Origin: a bacterium
GTDB taxonomy: Bacteria > Babelota > Babeliae > Babelales > JAUWHS01
DNA: 56,877 nucleotides
Reading direction: 5' to 3'
Assembly (NCBI GenBank): GCA_030605785.1
Contig: JAUWHS010000065.1
Coordinates: 1-56,877, forward strand
Under the pieces are notes generated by a model. That model did not search any database. It saw only the letters and a list, made by a program, of their open reading frames with translations, and was not told the DNA's origin. Position numbers and translations under genes: made by a program. Of the stretch, positions 7,292-37,521 are shown one piece after another (position 1 is the first letter of the stretch; each line of letters starts with the position of its first letter).

Positions 7292-10200
7292 TTAGATATC
7301 TAAGTTTTTTACAAAGTGCGCATGCTTTTCAATGTATTCACGTCGATCTTCAACGACATCACCCATTAAAGATGTAAACCATTGGTCAGCTTTAATGCCA
7401 TCTTCAATCGTAACTTTAAGAAAACTTCGTACTGCCGGATCCATAGTTGTTTCCCAAAGTTGTTCCGGATTCATTTCACCAAGACCTTTGTATCGTTGAA
7501 TTGTCATTAAAGATTTTCCGGAACCTATTATTGTGTTTGAAAAATTTAAAACACCAATTCCGGCTTTTTCATTTTTATCACTGATTGTAAAAATCCATTT
7601 ACCTTCATCAAGCATTTTTATTGGTTTATAAAGATTTAAAAGGTTTTCAGTTTCTTCTGACGCGAAAAATGTTAATGGAACTTCCCATGTTTTTTTGTTT
7701 TCTTTAAATATTAACATTTCTTTTGTTTGATCTTCTGTTTCAAGCGCGTTTTCATCTTCTTGATCAGTTTTAAACTTGCAGTCTATTTTATATTTTGGAT
7801 AATGTTTTTGTAGATTTTCTAGAATTTCATTTGGTGTATATTTGCCCAATTGCCAATCGATTGAATTTAAAAATCCGGTTAATTCATGACAATGTATTTT
7901 TGATACTTCTATATAGTTACTTAATTTTGTTATTTCGTTTTCGTACTTTAAAGTTTTATTTAACAATTCTGACCAATCTGATTCTTTGTACAATTTTTTA
8001 TCCACTTTTAAGTGTGTGTTTTTTTCAGCCCATTCAAATAAAAATTGTTTTAATTCAGAATCATCTTGTAAATATTTTTCTGCTTTTCCAACTTTTGCTT
8101 TGTAGAGTGGTGGTTGCGCAACATACAAGTAACCTTTTTCGATCATTGGTTTCATATGTCTGAAGAAAAAAGTTAAAAGCAAAATTCGAATATGTGAACC
8201 GTCAACGTCGGCGTCTGTCATTATAACAACTTTATGATAACGGACTTTGTCCGTATCAAATTCGTTGTTCCCGATTCCGGCGCCAATCGCGGTTACAAGA
8301 TCTTTTATTTCATTGTTCGCTAACATTTTATCAAAGCGAGCTTTTTCAGCGTTTATAATTTTACCTCTGAGTGGAAGAATTGCTTGAGTGAAACGGTCAC
8401 GAGCCTGTTTGGCACTGTTGTGAACAAAAACTCCGCAAGCTAACGCGAAATTATGTGTTTCTTCCACTTCTAAATCATAAACATCTATTTTACGATCAAG
8501 CTTTAGAATAGTTTTAATTTTATGGTTATAGTGTTTTACTGCATCTTTTAATTTCTTCTCATCACCATTAAAAAATCTTGAACAAAATGTGTTGTATAGT
8601 AAAAGATTTGGATTTTTTAATTTTTTTCGTTCATTGTCATATTCTGTAAAACATTGTTGTTTGTCATGCAACTCTTTTAAAACTTTTATTGTATTTTCAT
8701 AGTAAGTTTTATTATAAGCCTTTTTTCTATTTTCTCTGAACTCATTTGTCCATTGATTTTTTGTTTTTTCACTACGCCAGGATAGAAGGCTTTCATTTTT
8801 CCATTGTTGCTTTGCAATATTGGAAAGACTTTCTTTTTGTTGTGGATTTTGTTTAAAAAATTCTTTAACTTTTTCAGATTGTTTTTTTCTGTTTTCAGTA
8901 TTTCCCCAGTATTTGATTTGATTTTCATTTAATTGTTTGTTGTTTTTTTTTCTGTAATCTTTATTGTTGTTATAAAAGTCTAGAAATTTCTTTACCATAC
9001 AACTTTTGTATTCTTCATTTTCCCACTGCGCTTTTGCTCTTTTGCTTAGCATCGCTTTCATTTTAGGGGTAGACATAATAGCGCTAACTTTGGCTTTGTA
9101 TTCTTTTGTTTGATGAGCTTTTTTAGCTTTTTCTTTTACGTCTTCTCTGTGAATGGTAAATTCTAACATTTGGCGATGTAGAGCCAGATGGTCATCTTTG
9201 TGCATGCGTACAATATTTTCAGGATTATTGTTAATCTTGTTGAAATTTACATGGTGTTTGTGTGATCCGTTTTTTAAAGAGTATTTATTTTGTCTTAAGT
9301 TAAATTTATCTGATAACAAATGAGTAAAGATCCATTTTTGATTTTTATTATCTAAAACCATTTCATAGCCGGCAATGGTAATTCTTTTTTCGATCTTAGA
9401 AAGTTTTCGGTAAAGAGGCATTAAAGAATCAGTCAGAATTAAATCTTGCGCTTTTTTGTAAGACCCATCTTTTAGCATAAATAAATGATCGGGAGTGCAA
9501 GTGATTTCTTTATCGTTATCTAAAATCACCTTTATTATGCTGGTATTGGTTTTTGTTTTTCTGGGATGCTTGATTAATGCTATCTCTATGTTTCCTTCTT
9601 TTGTTGTTGTATAGCAATAATTTTTTATACCTTTTTCATGTTCTTTAACTAGATCTCTAAAACTTATGTCTCTTCCATCAAGTAATGCTATTTTTGTATC
9701 TCCTGAAAAACAACCGCCGGCGGAATCTCCTTCCACAATGAAAAGTTCTGTTTTTGAAGCATCCGTTTCGGAACAATCGGCAAGTTTTCCCGGTAGGATT
9801 GAACTTTCAAGAACAGTTTTTCTTCTTGTTAGTTCTCTAGCTCTTTTTGCGGCGTTTCTTGCTTGTTGCGCAAGTTGCGCTTTTTGCAGAATTTTTTTAG
9901 CTATTTGAGGATGTTCCTCAAAATATGTGTTTAAAAACGCGTATGTCCAAGAATCAACCAAACCTTTAACTTCACTGTTTCCAAGTTTGGTTTTTGTTTG
10001 TCCTTCAAATTGAGGTTCAGGAACTTTAATACTTAAAACACAAACAATTCCTTCTCTGACATCATCACTTGAAAAACTTTCACCATCTTTTAGAATTTTG
10101 AAAGTTTGAGCAGCTTTATTACAACTTTTTGTTAAAGCTGATCTAAGCCCGGCTTCATGTGTTCCGCCTTCAGTTGTTCTGATGTTGTTTACGAAACTAA

Positions 10201-11029
10201 AAACCTGATCAGCGTAACCGTCATTATATTGACATGCTATTTCTAAGACGTATTGACCATCATCTTTTTGGAATTGTATTATTTCTTTGAATAAAGGATT
10301 TTTTTTAGCGCTTACAGCTTCGACAAATGACGCGATTCCACCTTCAAAGAAAAAGACTTCTTCTTGTTCAGTATTTTCATCTTTGATTTCTATTTTTAAA
10401 CCTTTATTCAAAAAGGCAAGTTCTCTTAACCTTGAAGCAAGTGTGTCGAATTTAAATCCTGTTTCGTCAAAAATTTTAGGATCCGGTGTAAACCGAATAT
10501 ATGTTCCTGTTTTGTCTGATGTTCCGGTCTCTTTTAATGGCGCTAATGGTTTACCTCTTTTGTATTCTTGTTCGTAAACTTTGTCATTTCTATAAACTTT
10601 AATTTTCAAGTTTTCAGATAAAGCGTTTACGACAGAAACACCAACTCCATGTAAACCACCGGAATATTTGTAGGAATCTTTTTCAAATTTTCCGCCGGCG
10701 TGTAATTTGGTTAACACAACCTCAGTCGCGGATATTTTTTCCGTTGGATGAATATCAACGGGAATTCCTCGTCCGTTATCTTCTACGGAACAAGAACCGT
10801 CAGAATGCAGAATTACTTTTATTTTATTACAGTATTCTGCCAACGCTTCGTCAACGGAGTTATCTACAACTTCGTAGACCAAGTGATGAAGACCTGAAAT
10901 ACTTGTTGATCCAATATACATGGCAGGTCGTTTGCGAACGGCGTCTAAACCTTCTAATACTTTAATAGACTTTGCGCCATATTCTTTTGTTGATTTGTCT
11001 GTTTTTTTTATTTTTTCATCTTTTCCCAT
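7292..11029 (-). CDS. gyrB: DNA gyrase subunit B, interrupted in frame by an intein
   Basis: GHKL ATPase motifs are present (YEVVDNSVDEA, DNGRGIP, GGLHGVGVSVVNALS). The Toprim motif EGDSAGG is split from SAKQARDR by 432 aa. C-terminal QRYKGLGEM. The total of 1245 aa compares with about 810 aa once the insert is removed. Confidence 0.95.
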   Translation of the reverse strand: MGKDEKIKKTDKSTKEYGAKSIKVLEGLDAVRKRPAMYIGSTSISGLHHLVYEVVDNSVDEALAEYCNKIKVILHSDGSCSVEDNGRGIPVDIHPTEKISATEVVLTKLHAGGKFEKDSYKYSGGLHGVGVSVVNALSENLKIKVYRNDKVYEQEYKRGKPLAPLKETGTSDKTGTYIRFTPDPKIFDETGFKFDTLASRLRELAFLNKGLKIEIKDENTEQEEVFFFEGGIASFVEAVSAKKNPLFKEIIQFQKDDGQYVLEIACQYNDGYADQVFSFVNNIRTTEGGTHEAGLRSALTKSCNKAAQTFKILKDGESFSSDDVREGIVCVLSIKVPEPQFEGQTKTKLGNSEVKGLVDSWTYAFLNTYFEEHPQIAKKILQKAQLAQQARNAAKRARELTRRKTVLESSILPGKLADCSETDASKTELFIVEGDSAGGCFSGDTKIALLDGRDISFRDLVKEHEKGIKNYCYTTTKEGNIEIALIKHPRKTKTNTSIIKVILDNDKEITCTPDHLFMLKDGSYKKAQDLILTDSLMPLYRKLSKIEKRITIAGYEMVLDNKNQKWIFTHLLSDKFNLRQNKYSLKNGSHKHHVNFNKINNNPENIVRMHKDDHLALHRQMLEFTIHREDVKEKAKKAHQTKEYKAKVSAIMSTPKMKAMLSKRAKAQWENEEYKSCMVKKFLDFYNNNKDYRKKNNKQLNENQIKYWGNTENRKKQSEKVKEFFKQNPQQKESLSNIAKQQWKNESLLSWRSEKTKNQWTNEFRENRKKAYNKTYYENTIKVLKELHDKQQCFTEYDNERKKLKNPNLLLYNTFCSRFFNGDEKKLKDAVKHYNHKIKTILKLDRKIDVYDLEVEETHNFALACGVFVHNSAKQARDRFTQAILPLRGKIINAEKARFDKMLANNEIKDLVTAIGAGIGNNEFDTDKVRYHKVVIMTDADVDGSHIRILLLTFFFRHMKPMIEKGYLYVAQPPLYKAKVGKAEKYLQDDSELKQFLFEWAEKNTHLKVDKKLYKESDWSELLNKTLKYENEITKLSNYIEVSKIHCHELTGFLNSIDWQLGKYTPNEILENLQKHYPKYKIDCKFKTDQEDENALETEDQTKEMLIFKENKKTWEVPLTFFASEETENLLNLYKPIKMLDEGKWIFTISDKNEKAGIGVLNFSNTIIGSGKSLMTIQRYKGLGEMNPEQLWETTMDPAVRSFLKVTIEDGIKADQWFTSLMGDVVEDRREYIEKHAHFVKNLDI
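8417..9712 (-). mobile_element. GyrB intein (432 aa) with HNH homing-endonuclease core
   Basis: Starts with Cys in GG|CFSGDT and ends VFVHN|S. Block-B-like TPDH. HNH-like HKHHVNFNKINNNPENIVRMHKDDHLALH. The boundaries were checked codon by codon on the minus strand. Confidence 0.9.
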
Positions 11030-24811: not shown

Positions 24812-24896
24812 GGGGAGGTTCCCGAGTGGTCAAAGGGGACGGACTGTAAATCCGTTGACTTCGTCTTCACAGGTTCGAATCCTGTTCTCCCCACCA
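24812..24896 (+). tRNA. tRNA-Tyr (anticodon GUA), class II with long variable arm
   Basis: GGGGAGG / ACGGA-CTGTAAA-TCCGT / variable arm TGACTTCGTCTTC / ACAGG-TTCGAAT-CCTGT / TCTCCCC-A-CCA. Confidence 0.9.
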
Positions 24897-25118
24897 GTCT
24901 TCGCTCTTACGAGCTACGCCTGGCAGGCCAGTATTTTTAAATGACTTTGATAATAAATTAATTTTGTTAACAAATAAGCGAAGACTGTCCGGCGAAGCAT
25001 TTATTTATGTTGTTATTAAATTTTTTTATTGAGGCGAAGACGGACTTAAGTTTCCAAATCCTTTTCAACCTTAATGTTTTTGATAGAATGAAATTTGTAT
25101 AAAAGTATTGAAATATTT

Positions 25119-25194
25119 GCGGGAATAGCTCAATTGGTAGAGCGACAGCCTTCCAAGCTGTAGGTTGCGGGTTCGAGTCCCGTTTCCCGCTCCA
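25119..25194 (+). tRNA. tRNA-Gly (anticodon UCC)
   Basis: GCGGGAA / GCTC-AATTGGTA-GAGC / ACAGC-CTTCCAA-GCTGT / GCGGG-TTCGAGT-CCCGT / TTCCCGC-T-CCA. Confidence 0.9.
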
Positions 25195-25208
25195 TTTTTT
25201 TTGTGAGC

Positions 25209-25284
25209 GCTGGCATAGCTCAGTTGGTAGAGCAGCTGATTTGTAATCAGCAGGTCGCTGGTTCGAGTCCAGTTGCCAGCTCCA
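25209..25284 (+). tRNA. tRNA-Thr (anticodon UGU)
   Basis: GCTGGCA / GCTC-AGTTGGTA-GAGC / GCTGA-TTTGTAA-TCAGC / GCTGG-TTCGAGT-CCAGT / TGCCAGC-T-CCA. Confidence 0.9.
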
Positions 25285-25435
25285 TTTTCTTTTACAATAC
25301 TTTTTTCATTATTTTTTTTACTTTTTTTTCTTTTCATTTAATATAAATGTCTTATAAAGACGGCAAAAAGTTGGGGTGTAGTTTTTTGAAAGAATTGTTG
25401 TGGGGAATTGCGGACGAAGTTTTCTTGATTGAATC

Positions 25436-25511
25436 GTCCGCGTAGCTCAGTTGGTAGAGCACTTCCTTGGTAAGGGAGAGGTCACCGGTTCAATCCCGGT
25501 CGCGGGCTCCA
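25436..25511 (+). tRNA. tRNA-Thr (anticodon GGU)
   Basis: GTCCGCG / GCTC-AGTTGGTA-GAGC / CTTCC-TTGGTAA-GGGAG / CACCGG-TTCAATC-CCGGT / CGCGGGC-T-CCA, with one G-U pair in the acceptor stem. Confidence 0.85.
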
Positions 25512-25538
25512 TAGTTTTGGTTTTATGGAAAGTTAAAT

Positions 25539-25697
25539 ATGGCAAAAAATAGAACGATTATTACTTTTGAGTGTAGTGATTGCAAAATGCGCAATTATAC
25601 GACAAGAGTTTCTAAAAAGAGAGCTTTTGGTAAATTATCTCTAAATAAGTATTGTTCTAAGTGCAGAAAGCATGTTTTGCACAAAGAAACAAAATAA
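25539..25697 (+). CDS. rpmG: 50S ribosomal protein L33 (52 aa; not in the supplied ORF track)
   Basis: Manual translation gives [52 protein letters not shown], with the L33 CxxC...CxxC zinc ribbon and the canonical position upstream of secE. Confidence 0.9.
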
Positions 25698-25711
25698 TAA
25701 GGAGATCGGTA

Positions 25712-25787
25712 GGGTCAGTAGCTCCAATGGTAGAGCAGCGGTCTCCAAAACCGCGTGCTGGGGGTTCGAGTCCCTCCTGACCCGCCA
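25712..25787 (+). tRNA. tRNA-Trp (anticodon CCA)
   Basis: GGGTCAG / GCTC-CAATGGTA-GAGC / GCGGT-CTCCAAA-ACCGC / GGGGG-TTCGAGT-CCCTC / CTGACCC-G-CCA. Confidence 0.9.
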
Positions 25788-28797: not shown

Positions 28798-28957
28798 AGC
28801 AAGATTTTTTATTTTTTTGTTAATATGCTTGGATCCGTCTTAAATGTTTTTATTTGGGACGGCGTCCATTTCTTGGCTTTTTTGTAAATCATATTTTATG
28901 AATGATTATTAGATGGTTGGTTAGAAATTTATCTATTTACGGTTGGGGAGCGATTTG

Positions 28958-31900
28958 ATGTCTCAATTTCTAGGAAAAATGGGTACTGTTAGAAAGAACT
29001 TTGGCAAGGTCAGAGAGATTGTTTCTTTGCCTAATTTAATTGAAATTCAGTCAAAGTCTTTTAATAATTTTGCTCAATTGGATGTTCTGCCTTCAGAAAG
29101 AAAAAATGTTGGGTTAGAAAAAGTATTAAAGGATATTTTTCCAGTGGAACATAGTGATCGTATTTCTTTGGAATATGTTAGTTATGAGTTAGGAACCTGG
29201 GAATGTGTTTGTGGCCAATTAAAAGGGATAGAAAATCGTTATAAATGGACATGTTCTTCTTGTAAAAAAAGTGGTTGTAGTAGATTAAAAGATGCTTGTG
29301 TTTGTCCTAAGTGTGGTAAAAAAACCGCCAGCTATATATCGTGTAAAAAATGTTTTTCCAGAGTAATTGTAAAAGTTGATACAGGATTAGATGAATGTCG
29401 TTATAGTGGCAAAACATATTCTATGCCATTAAAAGTTAAGATGCAGCTTGGCGCATGGGATATTGATCCGGAAACAAATACAAAGGTCATTAAGGATATA
29501 AAAGAACAGGAAGTTTTCTTTGCTGATTTACCTATAATGGTTGATTTGTATCAGGATGAATACGATACCTTTTTCTTGGGAAGTCAAGGAACGTTTCTTA
29601 TTAACGGTGTTGACCGAGTTGTTGTTAGTCAATTACATCGTTCTCCCGGGGTAATTTTTGGATTAAGTAGAAAAACAAAAGATTTTAGAGGTCAGCCGTC
29701 TCATATCGCGAGAATAATTCCAAGTCGTGGTTCGTGGTTAGATTTTGAATTTGATAGTAACGAATTATTGAATGTAAGAATTGACAAGAAAAAGAAAATT
29801 TTAGTTACGACTTTCTTGCAAGCTCTTGATATTAGTAGAAATGATATTTTATCTCTATTTTATAAGTTTGATAATATTGAATTTAAAGTTGGAAGCTTTT
29901 ATAGGAAAATAGATGATAATTTAATTGGCCAACGTCTAGAAGGGGATGCTCTTCCAACAAAAACTCTTGAAAAAGAAATTGGAATTGGTCATAGATTTAC
30001 AAAGGACATAATTTCTAAGCTACTAAAGAAAAAGGTAAAATCTCTAACCGTTAGGGCAAGTAGTTTAATTAATAGAATTTTAGCTGAAGATCTTATTGAT
30101 AATGAAACAGGAGAAATTTTAGTTGCTCAAGGAGAAATTCTAACTGAAGAGTTACTAGATAAAATTGTTTCTTTAGGTAATAGAACTTTAAGGTTTATTC
30201 AGTCTTCAGGTTATGCTTTTCAGCCAACAGTCGCTATTACATTATCACAGGATAGTGTTTTTTCTTATGAAGACGCGTTGAAAGAAGTTTATAGTAGGCT
30301 TCGTCCCGGTGATGTTCCAACTTTGGATACGATGAAAGAATATATAAATAATTTATTTTTCAATCCTCGTTTTTATGATTTAACTATTGTTGGTCGTATT
30401 CGCGCAAACAGAAAGCTTGATCTTAAAGTTGATGAATCCATTACACATTTAACTAAAGAAGATATTATCGCGACCATTCAATATTTGATTGGTTTAAAAG
30501 AACGCGGCGAAGGTGAATTAGATGATATTGATCATCTAGGGAACCGTTCGGTTAGACTTGTTGGAGAGCTATTACAAAGCCAAATTTATGTTGGTTTTGC
30601 GAGAATAGAAAGAATTATTAGAGAACGCTTTAGATTACAAGACAATTATACGGCTTTAATGCCTTATGATTTCTTAAATGTAAAACCATTAGCTGCTGTT
30701 TTGAGAGAGTTTTTTGGAACAGGGCAGTTATCACAATTTATGGATCAAACCAATCCCTTGGCCGAAATGGCGCACAAAAGAAGGTTATCTGCTCTTGGAC
30801 CCGGTGGTATTACAAGAGATCGCGCGACATTTGAAGTTCGGGACGTGCATAGTTCTCACTATGGTAGAATTTGTCCTATTGAAACACCTGAAGGTCAAAA
30901 TATTGGTCTTATTTCTTCTCTTTCTACATATGCAAAAGTTAATGAATTAGGTTTTATTGAAACTCCATATAGATCTGTTAAAAAAGGTGTTGTTCAGGAT
31001 GATATTTTATATTTGGATGCCTTTGAAGAAATAGGAAAAGCTATTGCTCAAGCATCAGTGCCCGTAGATTCCAAAGGTAAAATAAAAGATGAACAGGTTT
31101 TAGTTAGAAAAGATGGAAACATATCTTTAAATAGTTCAAGTGATGTTTCTTATGTAGACGCGTCACCAAAGCAATTAGTTTCTGTCGCGACAGCATTGAT
31201 TCCATTTTTAGAACATGATGACGCAAACCGCGCGCTTATGGGTTCAAACATGCAACGACAAGCCGTACCTCTTATTAAATGTCAGGCTCCTATGATTGGA
31301 ACCGGAATGGAAGTAGATATTGGTTCTGTTGAAGGTGGCAGTGTTATTGCTAAGAATTCCGGTGTTGTTGAATATGTTTCGGGTGATCGAATTGTAATTC
31401 AAATTGATGAAAAAGGTGAAAATGATAAGAGTTGGGTTTCGCATCCAATTGATATTTATAAATTAAAGAAATTTGCGAGATCTAGTCATAATACTTGGAT
31501 TCAAAATACTTCTTTGGTTCGTGTTGGCGATAGAATTGAAAAAGGTGATGTTATTGCTGATGGCGCTGCTGTTTACAATGGGGAGCTTGCTTTAGGAAGT
31601 AATGTATTAGTTGCTTTTATGCCATGGCAAGGTTACAACTTTGAAGACGCGATACTTGTGAGTAAACGATTTGTGAGTGAAGATGTTTTCAGCTCTGTTC
31701 ATATAGTAGAATTTGTTGTTGAAGCTAGAGAAACAAAATTAGGAGCTGAAGAAATTACAAAAGATATTCCAAATGTCGGTGAAAAAGAACTTGAAGCTTT
31801 AGATGAAGATGGAATTGTTCGTGTTGGAACGCGAGTAAAGCCGGGGGATATTTTAGTTGGAAAAGTTACTCTAAAAGGGGATGTTCAAGTTTCTCCGGAA

Positions 31901-33247
31901 GAAAAATTATTGCGAGCTATTTTTGGTGAGAAATCAAGAGAAGTTCGAGATACTTCTTTACGAGTACCACCGGGAGTTGAAGCAACTGTTACAGATGTAA
32001 AAGTTTTTTCCAGAAGTGGTATTAGAAAAGATAAGCGATATAAAGATATTGTTGTAAAGGAATCTCAAAAGATTGAAGATGATTTTGATTATCAGGTTGC
32101 AATTCTCGAAAAAAGATTTAGAGAAAAGTTGTTTGGATTTTTGAAAGGCGACATTTCATCAAGTAAATTTGAAAAATTAACATTAGAGCAGTTGTTTGAA
32201 ACTAAAACAGGTAAAAAGCAGATAGATTCTAAAATAAAAGAATATAAAGATATTTGGCAAAATCAGATTCATGTTTTAACCGCTCTGAAAGAAGAAAAGA
32301 TTAGTAAGTTAAGAAAAGGTGATGAATTGCCATCCGGTGTTATCAAAATGATAAAGGTTTATGTTGCGGCAAAAAGACATTTATCTGTTGGTGACAAAAT
32401 GGCTGGCCGACATGGTAACAAAGGTGTTGTTTCAAGAATCGCGAGATTTGAAGATATGCCTTACATGGAAGATGGTACACCTGTTGATATTGTTCTTAAT
32501 CCACTAGGTGTTCCGGGTCGTATGAACTTGGGGCAAATATTAGAGACTTTGCTTGGTATGGCCGGACGAAAAATGGGTAATGATTTAGCTAAACAAATAA
32601 ATGATTTGAGCAATAAAGAATTGAAGTCTCGTTTGGTTGGATATTATGGCAATGAAATTGTTGACTCCTTAGAAAAAACTAGTGGTAAAGAAGCTTTATT
32701 TGAATTGGCAAAAAAGACAGCAGCAAAAGGTGTTTATATGAGCACACCTATTTTTGATGGCGCTGATTACAATAAAGAGGTTAAGCCTTTATTAGGTAGT
32801 TTAGGATTGTCTGAAAGCGGAACTTACAAACTTTATGATGGTTGTACAGGTGTTCCTTTTGACCAGGAAGTGACAGTTGGTTTCATTTATATGATGAAAC
32901 TTAATCACTTGGCTGATGATAAATTACATGCTAGATCGGTTGGTCCTTATTCTTTAATAACTCAACAACCTTTGGGGGGTAAGGCGCAGTTTGGGGGACA
33001 AAGGCTAGGAGAGATGGAAGTGTGGGCATTATATTCATATGGCGCTGCTTATACGTTGCAAGAAATGTTAACCGTTAAGTCAGATGATGTTAATGGTCGC
33101 ATAAAAACATATGAAGCAATTGTTCGAGGTGATGAAATACCGGAACCTGGAATTCCAGAATCTTTTAATGTTTTTGTCAAAGAGCTTCAGAGCTTGTCGT
33201 TACAAGTTGATTTATTTAAAGCTAATAAGGAGCAAGTCAGTGAGTAA
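28958..33247 (+). CDS. rpoB: DNA-directed RNA polymerase beta subunit, with an N-terminal Cys-rich insertion
   Basis: Conserved blocks RSPGVIF, GNRSVRLVGELLQ, HKRRLSALGPGG, HYGRICPIETPEGQNIGLI, NMQRQAVPL, GRHGNKGVVS and GGQRLGEMEVWAL. ATG 28958 lies 7 nt after GGGGAG. Confidence 0.97.
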   Translation: MSQFLGKMGTVRKNFGKVREIVSLPNLIEIQSKSFNNFAQLDVLPSERKNVGLEKVLKDIFPVEHSDRISLEYVSYELGTWECVCGQLKGIENRYKWTCSSCKKSGCSRLKDACVCPKCGKKTASYISCKKCFSRVIVKVDTGLDECRYSGKTYSMPLKVKMQLGAWDIDPETNTKVIKDIKEQEVFFADLPIMVDLYQDEYDTFFLGSQGTFLINGVDRVVVSQLHRSPGVIFGLSRKTKDFRGQPSHIARIIPSRGSWLDFEFDSNELLNVRIDKKKKILVTTFLQALDISRNDILSLFYKFDNIEFKVGSFYRKIDDNLIGQRLEGDALPTKTLEKEIGIGHRFTKDIISKLLKKKVKSLTVRASSLINRILAEDLIDNETGEILVAQGEILTEELLDKIVSLGNRTLRFIQSSGYAFQPTVAITLSQDSVFSYEDALKEVYSRLRPGDVPTLDTMKEYINNLFFNPRFYDLTIVGRIRANRKLDLKVDESITHLTKEDIIATIQYLIGLKERGEGELDDIDHLGNRSVRLVGELLQSQIYVGFARIERIIRERFRLQDNYTALMPYDFLNVKPLAAVLREFFGTGQLSQFMDQTNPLAEMAHKRRLSALGPGGITRDRATFEVRDVHSSHYGRICPIETPEGQNIGLISSLSTYAKVNELGFIETPYRSVKKGVVQDDILYLDAFEEIGKAIAQASVPVDSKGKIKDEQVLVRKDGNISLNSSSDVSYVDASPKQLVSVATALIPFLEHDDANRALMGSNMQRQAVPLIKCQAPMIGTGMEVDIGSVEGGSVIAKNSGVVEYVSGDRIVIQIDEKGENDKSWVSHPIDIYKLKKFARSSHNTWIQNTSLVRVGDRIEKGDVIADGAAVYNGELALGSNVLVAFMPWQGYNFEDAILVSKRFVSEDVFSSVHIVEFVVEARETKLGAEEITKDIPNVGEKELEALDEDGIVRVGTRVKPGDILVGKVTLKGDVQVSPEEKLLRAIFGEKSREVRDTSLRVPPGVEATVTDVKVFSRSGIRKDKRYKDIVVKESQKIEDDFDYQVAILEKRFREKLFGFLKGDISSSKFEKLTLEQLFETKTGKKQIDSKIKEYKDIWQNQIHVLTALKEEKISKLRKGDELPSGVIKMIKVYVAAKRHLSVGDKMAGRHGNKGVVSRIARFEDMPYMEDGTPVDIVLNPLGVPGRMNLGQILETLLGMAGRKMGNDLAKQINDLSNKELKSRLVGYYGNEIVDSLEKTSGKEALFELAKKTAAKGVYMSTPIFDGADYNKEVKPLLGSLGLSESGTYKLYDGCTGVPFDQEVTVGFIYMMKLNHLADDKLHARSVGPYSLITQQPLGGKAQFGGQRLGEMEVWALYSYGAAYTLQEMLTVKSDDVNGRIKTYEAIVRGDEIPEPGIPESFNVFVKELQSLSLQVDLFKANKEQVSE

Positions 33248-36200
33248 CAGAATATTAGAACGTTTTAAAGAATATATAAACGCGTCTCAGTTTAACGCGA
33301 TTAAGATAAGTATTGCTTCTCCTGAGAAAATAAAATCCTTATCTTATGGTGAAGTTAAAAAGATAGAAACTATAAACTATAGAACTCTAAAACCGGAGAG
33401 AGACGGTTTATTTTGCGCGCGAATTTTTGGTCCTGTAAAGGATTGGGAATGTAATTGCGGAAAATATAAACGAATGAAACACCGTGGTGTTACATGTGAA
33501 AAATGTGGTGTTGAAGTAATTCAATCAAAGGTTCGTAGAGAGCGAATGGGACATGTTAATTTAGTTTCTCCTGTATGTCACATTTGGTATTTAAAAGGAA
33601 TTCCAAGTTATTTAAGTTTGATTTTGGGAATGACCATAAAGGATTTAGAGCGAGTTATTTATTTTGATAGTTACATTGTGTTGCATCAAGGTAATTCTCC
33701 TTATCCTCAAAAAACATTACTTTCCGCGCAACAGTATGAAGAATATGTTGATGCCCATCCGGAGGATACTGTTTTTAAAGGTGATATGGGCGCTGAGGCA
33801 ATCAGAATTCTTCTTTCAATGATTGATTTAAATTTTGAAGTTCGAAAAATTGAACAAGATTATGAACAATCGACTTCAGTTGCGGTTAAACATAAATTGG
33901 CAAAAAGATATAAAGTTTTGTCCGGAATGTTAAAAGCGAATATTAGACCTGAATGGGTTATTTTAGAAGTTCTCCCTGTTCTTCCTCCTGACTTAAGACC
34001 TTTGGTTCCACTGGAAGGTGGAAGATTTGCCAGTTCAGATTTAAATGATTTATATCGACGTGTTCTCAATAGGAATATTAGATTGCGTCGCTTAATTGAA
34101 TTAGAAGCTCCGGATGTCATTATAAAAAATGAAAAAAGAATGCTTCAAGAGTCTGTTGATGCTTTAATTGATAATGGTCGACGTGGTCAACCCGTAAAAG
34201 GCTCAAACAAAAGACCTCTTAAATCTTTAAGTGAAATGTTAAGAGGTAAGCAAGGTAGATTTAGGCAAAATCTTCTTGGTAAGCGTGTTGATTACTCAGG
34301 TCGCTCAGTGATTGTTGTTGATCCTGAATTACACCTTAGTCAATGTGGGTTGCCGAAATTGATGGCTTTAGAGCTCTTTAAACCTTTTGTTTATGTTGAA
34401 TTACAAAGACGCGAACTTGCTTCTAATTTAAGAGTTGCGAAGAGAATGGTAGAAGAAATGCTCCCGGAAGTTTGGGAAGCTTTAGAAGTTGTTGTTAAAG
34501 ATAGACCGGTTCTTTTAAATCGCGCTCCAACATTACACCGTTTAGGGATTCAAGCCTTTTATCCTATTTTGGTTGAAGGTAAGGCTATTAAAATTCATCC
34601 GTTAGTTTGTACCGCTTTTAACGCGGACTTTGACGGTGACCAGATGGCTGTTCACGTATTGTTAAGTAAAAGAGCATGTATTGAAGCGGAAAAATTAATT
34701 CTTTCAACTAAAAATATTTTGTCTCCATCGAGTGGAAAACCTTTGACCGTCCCAAGTCAAGATATGGTTCTTGGATTGTATTTTTTAACCAAAGGTAAAA
34801 AAAATGTAAAAGGCGAGGGCTTAACATTTTCAGGTATAGATGAGCTTGTTTTTGCTTATCAAAGAGGAGATGTTAATATTCAGGCGCATGTTCGCTTGAG
34901 ATTGAAATCAGGGCGAATTATTGATACAACCATTGGAAGAGCTTTATTATACGAGACATTACCGGAAGATACTGAATTTGAGTGGGTAAATAAAGCTGTT
35001 AAGAAAAAAGATTTATCAAAATTAATTGCTAGAGTATATAAAACTTTTGGAATGGAAAAAACGGTTGAATCCCTAGATAAAATTAAATCTTTGGGATTTT
35101 CCAATGCAACATATGCGGGAATTTCTTTGTCTATGGAAGATTTAATTATTCCGGATTCTAAAAAAGAAGTAGTAAAAAAAGCAAAAGAAAGTGTTGCTAG
35201 GATTGAAGGTCTTTATAGGGATGGCGCGATCACAAATGGTGAGCGTTACAATAATGTTATTCAGATTTGGGCTAGAGCAACGGAAGAAGTTGCGAATGAT
35301 ATGATTTCAGAATTAGAAACTCAGGATATATCTGCCGGATTAAATAAAGATAAAGAAAATAAACCCTTTAATCCTGTATTTATGATGTTAGATTCCGGAG
35401 CTCGTGGATCTAGACAGCAAATAAGACAGTTAGGCGCCATGAGAGGATTGATGGCAAAACCGTCAGGTGAAATCCTTGAAACTCCGGTTCTTGCGAACTT
35501 TAAAGATGGTTTAAATGTTTTTGAGTATTTTGTTTCTACTCACGGGGCTAGAAAGGGTTTGGCTGATACGGCATTGAAAACCGCTGACTCCGGTTATTTA
35601 ACAAGAAGACTTGTTGATGTGGCTCAAGATGTTGTTGTTACGCAGCAGGATTGTAATACTTTAGGTTATATTACATTAAAAGATCTTAAAGAATCCGGAG
35701 AGATTATTCTAGCGGTCGCAGACAGAATTCTTGGTAGAATTTTAGCTGAAGATGTTAAAGATCCCTTGACTGGAAAATTGATTGCGGCGCAAGGTGAAAT
35801 GGTAACAGATAATGTTGTTGAAAAAGTTAGAGACTCTGCTGTTACACGAGTTGCTGTTCGTTCTTCTCTAACATGTCGTGCAAGGCGTGGTGTGTGCGCA
35901 AAATGTTATGGCATGGATTTATCTGCAAGTAGATTGGTAGAGCTTGGTGTAGCGGTTGGAATTATCGCGGCGCAATCTATTGGTGAACCTGGAACGCAGC
36001 TCACGATGAGGACGTTCCATATTGGTGGTACCGCCAGTGGTTTGATTGAACAAAACTTTCATAAATCTCACTTTGACGGAAAAATAAAATTCAAAGGTGT
36101 TCATATTGTTCAGAATAGAGATGGCGAATGGATTGCTATAAACCGAAAAGGTCGAATAGCTATTGTCGCTGATGATGGAAGAGAATTAGAAGAATATAAA

Positions 36201-37364
36201 TTACTATATGGTACGAAATTACTTGTTGAAGATGGCGCGACGGTAAAGAAAGGTGATAAGCTTGCAGAATGGGGTATCTTACAAGTAATTTTAACTGAAA
36301 AAGCAGGTAGGATACAATATGTTGATTTGGTAGAAAATGTTACTTACCGAGTTCAATATGATGAGGCAACTAAACAATCTAAAAAAATAATATTAGAAAA
36401 GAAAGATGAAAAACGTCAACCTTGTCTTGTTGTAGAAGACAAACAAGGAAATGAAGAAGGACGTTATTATCTTCCAACCGGCGCGGTTATCGCGGTCGAA
36501 GATAACGCGGAGATTTTACCGGGTGATGTTTTAGCAAGACTTCCAAAAGAAATAAATAGAACAAAGGATATTACGGGAGGTTTGCCTAGAGTCGCTGAAT
36601 TGTTTGAAGCTAGAATACCAAAAGATATTGCTGTTATTAGTGAAGCTGATGGTGTTGTTAAATTTGGTGGTTTGCATAGAGGTCAACGAAGAATTACTGT
36701 TACAACTGATGATGGTGAAACATTTGAATATAGTATTCCCAGAAGTAAGAATTTAAATATTGAAGATGGAGAAGAAGTAAAAGCGGGTGATCTTTTAACT
36801 TCCGGTACTTCCAATTTACACGATATTTTAAGAATTTTAGGTCCGGATGAAGCTCAAGAAGCTCTTGTGAATGAAGTTCAGGAAATTTATCAACTTCAGG
36901 GTGTTGATATTAATGACAAACACCTTGAAATGATTGTTAAACAAATGCTTAGAAAAGTTCTCATTACGGATTCAGGTGATACAAGTTTTGTTGTTGGTGA
37001 TCGGGTTGATAAACTTCAATTACAATTCGTTAATAATTTGCTCATGAAAGAGGGTAAAAAAATCGCAACAGCGAAACCCCTTTTAATGGGTATAACAAAA
37101 GCTTCTTTGGGTACGGAAAGTTTTATTTCAGCCGCGTCTTTCCAAGAAACAACAAGAGTATTAACTGAGGCTTCAATAAGAGGTGAAGTTGATAATTTAT
37201 ATGGATTGAAAGAAAATGTTGTAATTGGTAAACTTATACCTGCCGGAACCGGTATTCCTTCTTTTAAAGCTAAATATTTGGGTGAAGATATTTCTGATTT
37301 GGAACAACAAGCTCGAAAAGAAGAAGAATTGGAAATTGGATTGGATAATATTTCTTTAGATTGA
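33240..37364 (+). CDS. rpoC: DNA-directed RNA polymerase beta-prime subunit
   Basis: GTG start 33240 follows AAGGAG and overlaps the rpoB stop by 8 nt. Zinc-binding WECNCGKYKRMKHRGVTCEKCG, catalytic NADFDGDQMAVH, and a second zinc site CRARRGVCAKC. Confidence 0.97.
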   Translation: MSNRILERFKEYINASQFNAIKISIASPEKIKSLSYGEVKKIETINYRTLKPERDGLFCARIFGPVKDWECNCGKYKRMKHRGVTCEKCGVEVIQSKVRRERMGHVNLVSPVCHIWYLKGIPSYLSLILGMTIKDLERVIYFDSYIVLHQGNSPYPQKTLLSAQQYEEYVDAHPEDTVFKGDMGAEAIRILLSMIDLNFEVRKIEQDYEQSTSVAVKHKLAKRYKVLSGMLKANIRPEWVILEVLPVLPPDLRPLVPLEGGRFASSDLNDLYRRVLNRNIRLRRLIELEAPDVIIKNEKRMLQESVDALIDNGRRGQPVKGSNKRPLKSLSEMLRGKQGRFRQNLLGKRVDYSGRSVIVVDPELHLSQCGLPKLMALELFKPFVYVELQRRELASNLRVAKRMVEEMLPEVWEALEVVVKDRPVLLNRAPTLHRLGIQAFYPILVEGKAIKIHPLVCTAFNADFDGDQMAVHVLLSKRACIEAEKLILSTKNILSPSSGKPLTVPSQDMVLGLYFLTKGKKNVKGEGLTFSGIDELVFAYQRGDVNIQAHVRLRLKSGRIIDTTIGRALLYETLPEDTEFEWVNKAVKKKDLSKLIARVYKTFGMEKTVESLDKIKSLGFSNATYAGISLSMEDLIIPDSKKEVVKKAKESVARIEGLYRDGAITNGERYNNVIQIWARATEEVANDMISELETQDISAGLNKDKENKPFNPVFMMLDSGARGSRQQIRQLGAMRGLMAKPSGEILETPVLANFKDGLNVFEYFVSTHGARKGLADTALKTADSGYLTRRLVDVAQDVVVTQQDCNTLGYITLKDLKESGEIILAVADRILGRILAEDVKDPLTGKLIAAQGEMVTDNVVEKVRDSAVTRVAVRSSLTCRARRGVCAKCYGMDLSASRLVELGVAVGIIAAQSIGEPGTQLTMRTFHIGGTASGLIEQNFHKSHFDGKIKFKGVHIVQNRDGEWIAINRKGRIAIVADDGRELEEYKLLYGTKLLVEDGATVKKGDKLAEWGILQVILTEKAGRIQYVDLVENVTYRVQYDEATKQSKKIILEKKDEKRQPCLVVEDKQGNEEGRYYLPTGAVIAVEDNAEILPGDVLARLPKEINRTKDITGGLPRVAELFEARIPKDIAVISEADGVVKFGGLHRGQRRITVTTDDGETFEYSIPRSKNLNIEDGEEVKAGDLLTSGTSNLHDILRILGPDEAQEALVNEVQEIYQLQGVDINDKHLEMIVKQMLRKVLITDSGDTSFVVGDRVDKLQLQFVNNLLMKEGKKIATAKPLLMGITKASLGTESFISAASFQETTRVLTEASIRGEVDNLYGLKENVVIGKLIPAGTGIPSFKAKYLGEDISDLEQQARKEEELEIGLDNISLD

Positions 37365-37446: not shown

Positions 37447-37521
37447 AGGCGCGTAGCTCAGGGGTAGAGCATTGCTTTGACGTAGCAAGGGTCAGCGGTT
37501 CGATTCCGCTCGTGCCTACCA
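37447..37521 (+). tRNA. tRNA-Val (anticodon GAC)
   Basis: AGGCGCG / GCTC-AGGGGTA-GAGC / TTGCT-TTGACGT-AGCAA / AGCGG-TTCGATT-CCGCT / CGTGCCT-A-CCA. Confidence 0.85.

Follow-up and report, generated by a model that had tools for sequence, protein, structure and literature searches.

The RNA polymerase β subunit (RpoB) encoded in the 56,877-nucleotide contig JAUWHS010000065.1, which was analysed over its whole length and is referred to here as the window, carries in its N-terminal part a cysteine-rich insert of 64 residues that, judged by comparison with related sequences, is genuine, ancient, under selection and common to Dependentiae and Acidobacteriota. The presence of two Cys4 metal sites within the insert, presumably occupied by zinc, is well supported by its conserved cysteines. 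The pattern of natural variants suggests that these sites are probably nested, with the first and last cysteine pairs (C83/C85 and C129/C132) forming an outer clip and an inner ribbon held within it.

That the host protein is RpoB follows from its full set of Rpb2 domains and the rplL-rpoB-rpoC context of its gene; it shares 63% identity with a second full-length RpoB from Dependentiae and keeps the IKE motif, with D180, K182, E183 and Q184 invariant in an alignment of 48 sequences. Its N-terminal 260 residues were aligned to 46 distinct β sequences with solved structures, and in all 46 the alignment falls into two pieces, ending at residues 78–80 and resuming at residues 144–146; the insert is absent from all solved RNA polymerases represented by these sequences. 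It is flanked by LEYVSYELG and ECRYSGKTYSMPLK and replaces residues 77–81 of Escherichia coli β, so that 64 residues stand where E. coli has 5, V82 of E. coli pairs with residue 144 of the window protein and the net gain is about 58 residues. An earlier reading of the DNA letters, the first-pass annotation, had placed an insertion of about 60 residues between two blocks that are contiguous in E. coli β, and the alignment to solved subunits bears this out. The cysteine-rich sequence that it quoted, WECVCGQLKGIENRYKWTCSSCKKSGCSRLKDACVCPKCGKKTASYISCKKCFSRV, is present as RpoB residues 81–136, and its coordinates, 29198–29386, correspond to residues 81–143.

The insert recurs widely. When one genome of each GTDB species was scanned with the RpoB N-terminus, 23 genome loci proved to encode the same N-terminus at 61–82% identity, and all of them span the insert. 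Their records read TM6, Babeliales, ‘bacterium’ or, doubtfully, ‘uncultured Pseudomonadota’, which assigns the window to the Dependentiae (TM6). A protein search with the N-terminal 260 residues returned proteins no longer than about 1.8 times the query, and hence fragments; among the best 120 matches, which were examined, most of these metagenomic N-terminal fragments have the insert at the same site, and the total comes to more than 100 fragments. The matches include a Dependentiae group, 53–71% identical to the query and with 66 residues between the anchors, and a high-GC group, 41–46% identical, in which 68–69 residues occupy exactly the same place and whose members are named Vicinamibacterales, Terriglobales or Acidobacteriota. 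Full-length RpoB proteins of Dependentiae and Acidobacteriota (1417–1448 residues) are 43–46% identical. When a profile of the insert alone was searched against 1.84 billion representative proteins, 244 clusters were obtained; the matches over a single stretch are mostly RpoB N-termini with the module at about residues 80–143. Matches over several stretches proved to be repetitive zinc-ribbon proteins and were treated as noise. The module had been put forward as specific to one lineage, a view that does not survive the finding of a homologous insert in Acidobacteriota (Vicinamibacterales, Terriglobales and others). There are further RpoB lineages with the insert (the P0343, P0345, P0226 and P0286 types).

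Ten of the 14 cysteines of the 1429-residue protein fall within residues 83–132, a concentration with a binomial chance of about 1e-12. The conserved set comprises C83, C85, C99, C102, C116, C119, C129 and C132, and 211 of the 232 aligned inserts retain every one of them; as had been proposed from the sequence, there are cysteines enough for two Cys4 sites. C114, which had been read as a ligand (the first cysteine of a ‘CxCxxC’ motif), is not one of them, being present in only 8 of the 232 inserts, and C107 is likewise not conserved.

How the eight ligands are shared between the two sites is indicated by the variants. C83, C85, C129 and C132 are invariant in the 48-sequence alignment, in contrast to the middle four. 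Nine variants from Dependentiae lack C102, C116 and C119, and some of them C99 as well, through substitutions and small deletions (P0027, P0039, P0041, P0045, P0057 and P0247 are among the variants that have lost middle cysteines), and in P0044 the whole middle segment is gone, leaving the two outer knuckles only. Among the variants of the 232 aligned inserts, none has lost an outer cysteine pair. A neighbour-joining tree computed from the sequence that flanks the insert puts the middle-loss variants in at least three places. A serial pairing would leave these variants with no intact site, yet they keep the four invariant cysteines, which favours a nested arrangement in which C83/C85 and C129/C132 together bind one metal. 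Since both ends of the insert join one tight hairpin loop, the strands at its beginning (residues 80–82) and end (residues 137–139) would be expected to pair, and this should bring the first knuckle next to the last.

The chief alternative, to which we assign a smaller though substantial share of the probability, is that two zinc ribbons follow one another in series, as the first-pass annotation had supposed (CxC...CxxC followed by CxCxxC...CxxC). Site A (C83, C85, C99 and C102) would then be a copy of the β′ zinc-binding domain, site B (C116, C119, C129 and C132) would be a canonical ribbon of the form CxxC...CxxC, and a variable linker would join them. A number of observations weigh in this direction and against the nested arrangement. 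The contiguous first half of the insert matches the β′ domain, having CxC-x12-CxxC in Acidobacteriota and a profile match of 89–94% probability; the C85–C99 and C119–C129 spacings are constant and the C102–C116 spacing varies; and the second half of the Acidobacteriota inserts, CPxCG-x10-CxxCG, looks like a canonical single ribbon, with similarity to DUF7577 (E = 8e-8), Zn_Ribbon_1 and DZR. Furthermore, three of the variants (P0027, P0041 and P0247) have an identical Cys-to-Asp change at the C99 position, so that the events of loss may be fewer than the tree suggests. The hidden Markov model (HMM) of the β′ zinc domain, described below, also gives the Acidobacteriota inserts 16–24 bits over their first four cysteines; the highest-scoring decoy ribbon has 9.4 bits. 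However, the nine variants without C102, C116 and C119 would have both serial sites broken while C83, C85, C129 and C132 stay invariant, P0044 retains the outer knuckles only, the outer pair spliced together fits β′ better than the contiguous half does (45 versus 31–36), and the ends of an insert in a hairpin loop must presumably meet, bringing their knuckles next to each other. The serial pairing is, in our assessment, probably wrong, and nesting of an inner ribbon within an outer clip remains the reading that we prefer.

The likeness of the insert to the zinc-binding domain of β′ was assessed by profile comparison with an alignment of ten verified β′ zinc domains (from the window, two related loci and seven solved structures). 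In hhalign, C83...C102 paired with the four β′ ligands at 89–94% probability and a score of 31.2. When the cysteine columns were kept fixed and the other columns were shuffled (n = 200), the score fell to 12.1 ± 3.8 and no shuffle out of 200 reached 31.2, which suggests that residues other than cysteine also match in register. Removal of the middle and joining of the outer knuckles (TWECVCGQLKGIENRY to ISCKKCFSRVI) gives the spacing CxC-x12-CxxC exactly as in β′, and the spliced pair aligns with β′ over 27 columns with no gap, at a score of 45.3 and 97% probability (shuffles 12.9 ± 4.2, 0 of 200), compared with 35.9 (range 31–36) for the best contiguous first-half alignment optimised likewise. 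What weakens this comparison is that the splice points were picked from 110 trials, although the top ten trials all score 43–47. In a search of a decoy-rich set with the β′ zinc-domain HMM, the Acidobacteriota inserts took 16–24 bits, the best unrelated ribbon 9.4 and the Dependentiae inserts about 10 or less; the insert of the window scored 2.6 bits and the zinc core of its own β′ subunit 65 bits. No β′ protein occurs among the best 150 of the 244 clusters matched by the insert profile, nor among the structural matches obtained with Foldseek. The striking resemblance to β′ that had been claimed for the opening of the insert thus stands in part, being well above cysteine-fixed shuffles by profile comparison, and is weak in the window's own sequence; the outer pair and the Acidobacteriota copies show it most strongly.

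In both modules a W/F-E-C-x-C-G knuckle precedes a V/I-x-C-x-x-C hairpin (in E. coli β′ the ligands are C70, C72, C85 and C88), the CxC-x12-CxxC spacing recurs in the first half of the Acidobacteriota inserts as well as in the spliced outer pair, and they belong to the same enzyme and to adjacent genes. They differ in that the β′ domain lies on the other subunit, in the clamp, whereas the insert lies on the opposite side of the cleft (β1/protrusion) and has a second Cys4 site. On these sequence comparisons, the likeness may possibly reflect an old duplication from the neighbouring gene, and convergence is possible too. The fuller scenario, in which an ancestor common to Dependentiae and Acidobacteriota copied the 5′ part of rpoC into rpoB, making the outer clip a true paralogue that afterwards acquired a nested second ribbon, with the module of the fused Streptomyces proteins described below tracing to that same ancestor, strikes us as rather unlikely. 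If it held, the β side would have gained a second contact element resembling the zinc domain, opposite the original, and the insert would be a rare genomic change uniting Dependentiae and Acidobacteriota.

Structure prediction agrees with a compact zinc-ribbon-like module. AlphaFold2, run with the 48-sequence alignment, modelled the insert as a compact domain with a confidence (predicted local distance difference test, pLDDT) of 93–95 over residues 80–140 in context, and of 89 for the insert alone. Short strands are predicted at residues 80–82, 96–99, 105–107, 124–126 and 137–139, and the Cys-x(1–2)-Cys knuckles are flanked by strands assigned by DSSP and are conserved across homologues, as is characteristic of zinc ribbons. 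Two results weigh against the assignment: the window insert has no Pfam match, and a Foldseek search of the PDB with the insert alone gave a best E-value of 0.22, which is not significant. The top matches of that search are nevertheless all zinc fingers or ribbons (TFIIEα, Nob1, Rpb12, RNF126, PolD, ValRS and MCM); with the N-terminal model, only β subunits were matched. The Acidobacteriota inserts exceed the Pfam thresholds of DUF7577 (32.2 versus 28, E = 8e-8) and Auto_anti-p27 (24.8 versus 24.1), and they approach those of several other zinc-ribbon families. Membership of the double zinc ribbon family DZR (PF12773) was considered and rejected, the Acidobacteriota copies scoring 21.0 and 22.2 bits against a threshold of 27.3 and the window copy having no match. 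Generic and double zinc ribbons (DZR, Zn_Ribbon_1 and DUF7577; Rpb12, TFIIEα, Nob1 and MCM) share with the insert the CxxC knuckles at hairpin turns, the short strands and the small size; in contrast to them, the first knuckle of the insert is CxC, its sites are probably nested and not in tandem, and it is embedded in RpoB. It is very improbable that the eight cysteines bind a cofactor other than zinc, such as an iron-sulfur cluster or rubredoxin-type iron, and so make a redox or metal sensor on the polymerase: eight conserved cysteines within 50 residues could serve such a cofactor and the bound metal is not deducible from sequence, but CxC, CxxC, CxxC and CxxC knuckles with strands before and after are the pattern of zinc ribbons, the fold and Pfam neighbours are all zinc ribbons, and variants with four cysteines survive.

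The first-pass annotation had asked whether the insert might be a chimera, and its occurrence in frame and at the same site in the 23 independent genome loci and in most of the 120 best fragments answers this in favour of a real feature. An assembly or binning artefact, a remnant of a mobile element or intein, or a functionless insertion that arose recently and neutrally has next to no probability, for although the window resembles a metagenome-assembled genome and its gyrB does hold an intein, the insert comes from many samples in two phyla, its outer cysteines are invariant in 48 of 48 sequences, its length is conserved and its fold is predicted with confidence. Artefact and restriction to a single lineage are both excluded because the same site is occupied in two phyla and at many loci, with length and cysteines conserved. 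As an intein the insert was tested and rejected: it has 64 residues where at least about 130 would be required, and unlike gyrB of the same window it has no match to Intein_splicing.

Several database entries met in this survey call for comment. The database labels of a number of contigs with Dependentiae-type RpoB (L003–L005, L008, L009, L013, L015, L016, L022 and L023), and of protein P0015, read ‘uncultured Pseudomonadota bacterium’ or ‘Candidatus Limnocylindria bacterium’ and look wrong, and a fragment with an Acidobacteriota-type insert (P0161) is labelled Escherichia coli. In two long contigs (loci L024, 10001–14307, and L025, 10001–18453) gene calling has divided rpoB and rpoC into several pieces whose tails run out of frame, which looks like the result of long-read frameshift errors rather than of truly split genes; frameshifted long-read assemblies of this kind account for many short RpoB ‘proteins’ in the databases.

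The search with the insert profile also matched a set of very divergent proteins that carry the module outside an ordinary RpoB. Two Streptomyces proteins of 1240–1252 residues (P0253, from Streptomyces chartreusis, MEU9658726.1, and P0318) have Rpb2 domain 6 followed by Rpb1 domain 1 and, from this domain order, look like divergent fused β/β′-like polymerases. These two, together with P0294 (773 residues, Rpb2_6 being its sole Pfam match) and P0300 (357 residues, no Pfam match), have an N-terminal extension of about 90 residues and a copy of the Dependentiae-style zinc insert within residues 167–234, spanning 167–229 in the two long proteins. P0253 and P0318 also have a β′-like CxCG...CxxCG motif of their own further on (residues 804–831 in P0253).

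The flanks of the insert align to strand 2 and the ensuing helix of the β1 domain, of which there are crystal structures with Mfd-RID (3MLQ) and with CarD (4XAX). The domain is built on a sheet of four strands, and strand 4, at the edge (E. coli I117–E119), binds Mfd and CarD (PMC3001067). By topology, the insert would follow strand 2 and come before the helix leading into strand 3, at the far end of the sheet from the turn between strands 3 and 4, so that the module is on the same domain as the Mfd/CarD site but probably not in the site itself. The arrangement that we propose is one in which the outer clip (C83/C85 with C129/C132) would staple the ends of the insert at a β-hairpin loop of β1, and the middle 31 residues, with C99/C102 and C116/C119, would form a second ribbon at the tip that has been lost in some Dependentiae. 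The module would thereby present a rigid, zinc-stapled accessory surface on the outside of β1/protrusion, with a structural role for the conserved clip and a variable, dispensable and lineage-specific surface at the tip. As had been suggested from the sequence, such a surface may contact nucleic acid or a transcription factor. Basic charge was considered as a sign of nucleic-acid binding and rejected: the insert of the window has 14 Lys and Arg against 4 Asp and Glu, but the Acidobacteriota copies are nearly neutral.

The catalogued β inserts (β-i4/SI1, β-i9/SI2 and β-i11, of the BBM2/BEAN fold) resemble the present one in being clade-restricted domains in surface loops that follow phylogeny, and differ from it in site and in fold. 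A 2024 survey of the insertional domains of β and β′ describes five β sites, in uD2, uD3, uD4 and uD5, with no site in the N-terminal part of uD1 (protrusion), and never mentions zinc or cysteine. Membership of the BBM2/BEAN class was also considered and rejected: the position of E. coli β residues 77–81 is not among the listed sites, and the insert is cysteine-rich and ribbon-like, not BEAN. A full-text literature search found no paper on a zinc ribbon in bacterial RpoB, with the catalogue of Lane and Darst (2010), which includes Acidobacteria and possibly lists the insert, lying outside its scope. The insert belongs to the lineage-specific RNA polymerase inserts, which are a known kind of element, and has a fold and a site that are absent from the catalogues covered and from all solved structures. 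A zinc ribbon in the second-largest RNA polymerase subunit is itself familiar from archaea and eukaryotes, in which Rpb2 universally has a C-terminal one in the clamp region. That ribbon is at the opposite end of the protein from the insert described here.

Lineage-specific inserts are where clade-specific regulators and phage proteins act on RNA polymerase. Those in the sources covered fall into few folds (BBM2/BEAN and the sandwich-barrel hybrid), and a zinc-stapled module on β1 would differ from them both in kind and in site. There is no polymerase structure for either of the two phyla that have the insert, and one of them, the Acidobacteriota, is abundant in soil. The insert is a possible duplicate of the β′ zinc domain and would be a shared derived character bearing on the branching of Dependentiae, and the variants with and without the inner ribbon offer a natural series for dissecting its function. 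If it turned out to decorate the structure and nothing more, little would follow in practice.

The coordinates of the insert, of its proposed parts and of the surrounding genes are collected in Table 1.

Table 1. Features of rpoB, its insert and the adjoining rpoC in the window (forward-strand positions; aa, amino acid residues of RpoB)
Feature	Position	Strand	Remarks
RpoB insert	29195..29386	+	aa 80–143, between β1 strand 2 and the next helix; unaligned in 46 of 46 solved β subunits
First knuckle, C83-x-C85 (WECVCG)	29204..29212	+	One side of the proposed outer zinc site; identical in 48 of 48 sequences; aligns with the β′ CxC knuckle
Inner segment (C99-xx-C102, C116-xx-C119)	29243..29335	+	aa 96–126; proposed nested, dispensable ribbon; four Cys lost together in 9 variants
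Last knuckle, C129-xx-C132	29342..29353	+	Other side of the proposed outer zinc site; identical in 48 of 48 sequences; present in every degenerate variant
C107	29276..29278	+	Extra, non-conserved cysteine; in only part of Dependentiae, absent in Acidobacteriota
C114	29297..29299	+	Extra, non-conserved cysteine; 8 of 232 aligned inserts
Second small insert (VDLYQDEYDTFFL)	29540..29578	+	aa 195–207; gap in the PDB alignments shown; small hairpin predicted by AlphaFold2 (strands 197–199 and 205–207)
rpoB (RNA polymerase β subunit)	28958..33247	+	1429 aa; Pfam Rpb2 domains 1, 2, 3, 45, 6 and 7 all above threshold
rpoC (β′ subunit)	33240..37364	+	Likely GTG start after an AAGGAG motif; N-terminus agrees with MSNQMLERFKEY of locus L025
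β′ zinc-binding domain core	33444..33509	+	Aligns to the zinc-binding region of solved β′ subunits

A second and smaller insert of 13 residues (VDLYQDEYDTFFL) lies in RpoB between PIM and GTFLINGVDRV and is found in Dependentiae only, the Acidobacteriota proteins reading IPLMTDNGTF at the same point. By topology its predicted hairpin would be at the same end of the β1 sheet as the zinc module, against which it might pack.

The gene order around rpoB, nusG-rplK-rplA-rplJ-rplL-rpoB-rpoC, is the usual one and is the same in related loci. The open reading frame of rpoB extends from 28943 to 33247, and the ATG at 28958, which is preceded by a GGGGAG motif, is its likely start. The program-made open reading frame of rpoC begins at 33111, within rpoB; a start at GTG 33240 would yield MSNRILERFKEY, as in locus L025, and is probably the true one, giving an overlap of 8 nt with the end of rpoB at its stop codon. 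Five tRNA genes (Tyr, Gly, Thr, Thr and Trp) occupy 24812–25787, immediately ahead of the nusG-rplK operon, from which no normal-sized tuf gene separates them, and a tRNA-Val gene (37447–37521) lies between rpoC and the open reading frames that follow. The gyrB gene of the window (7292–11029, minus strand) encodes 1245 residues, with its intein (Pfam Intein_splicing, residues 449–871) just before the Toprim domain.

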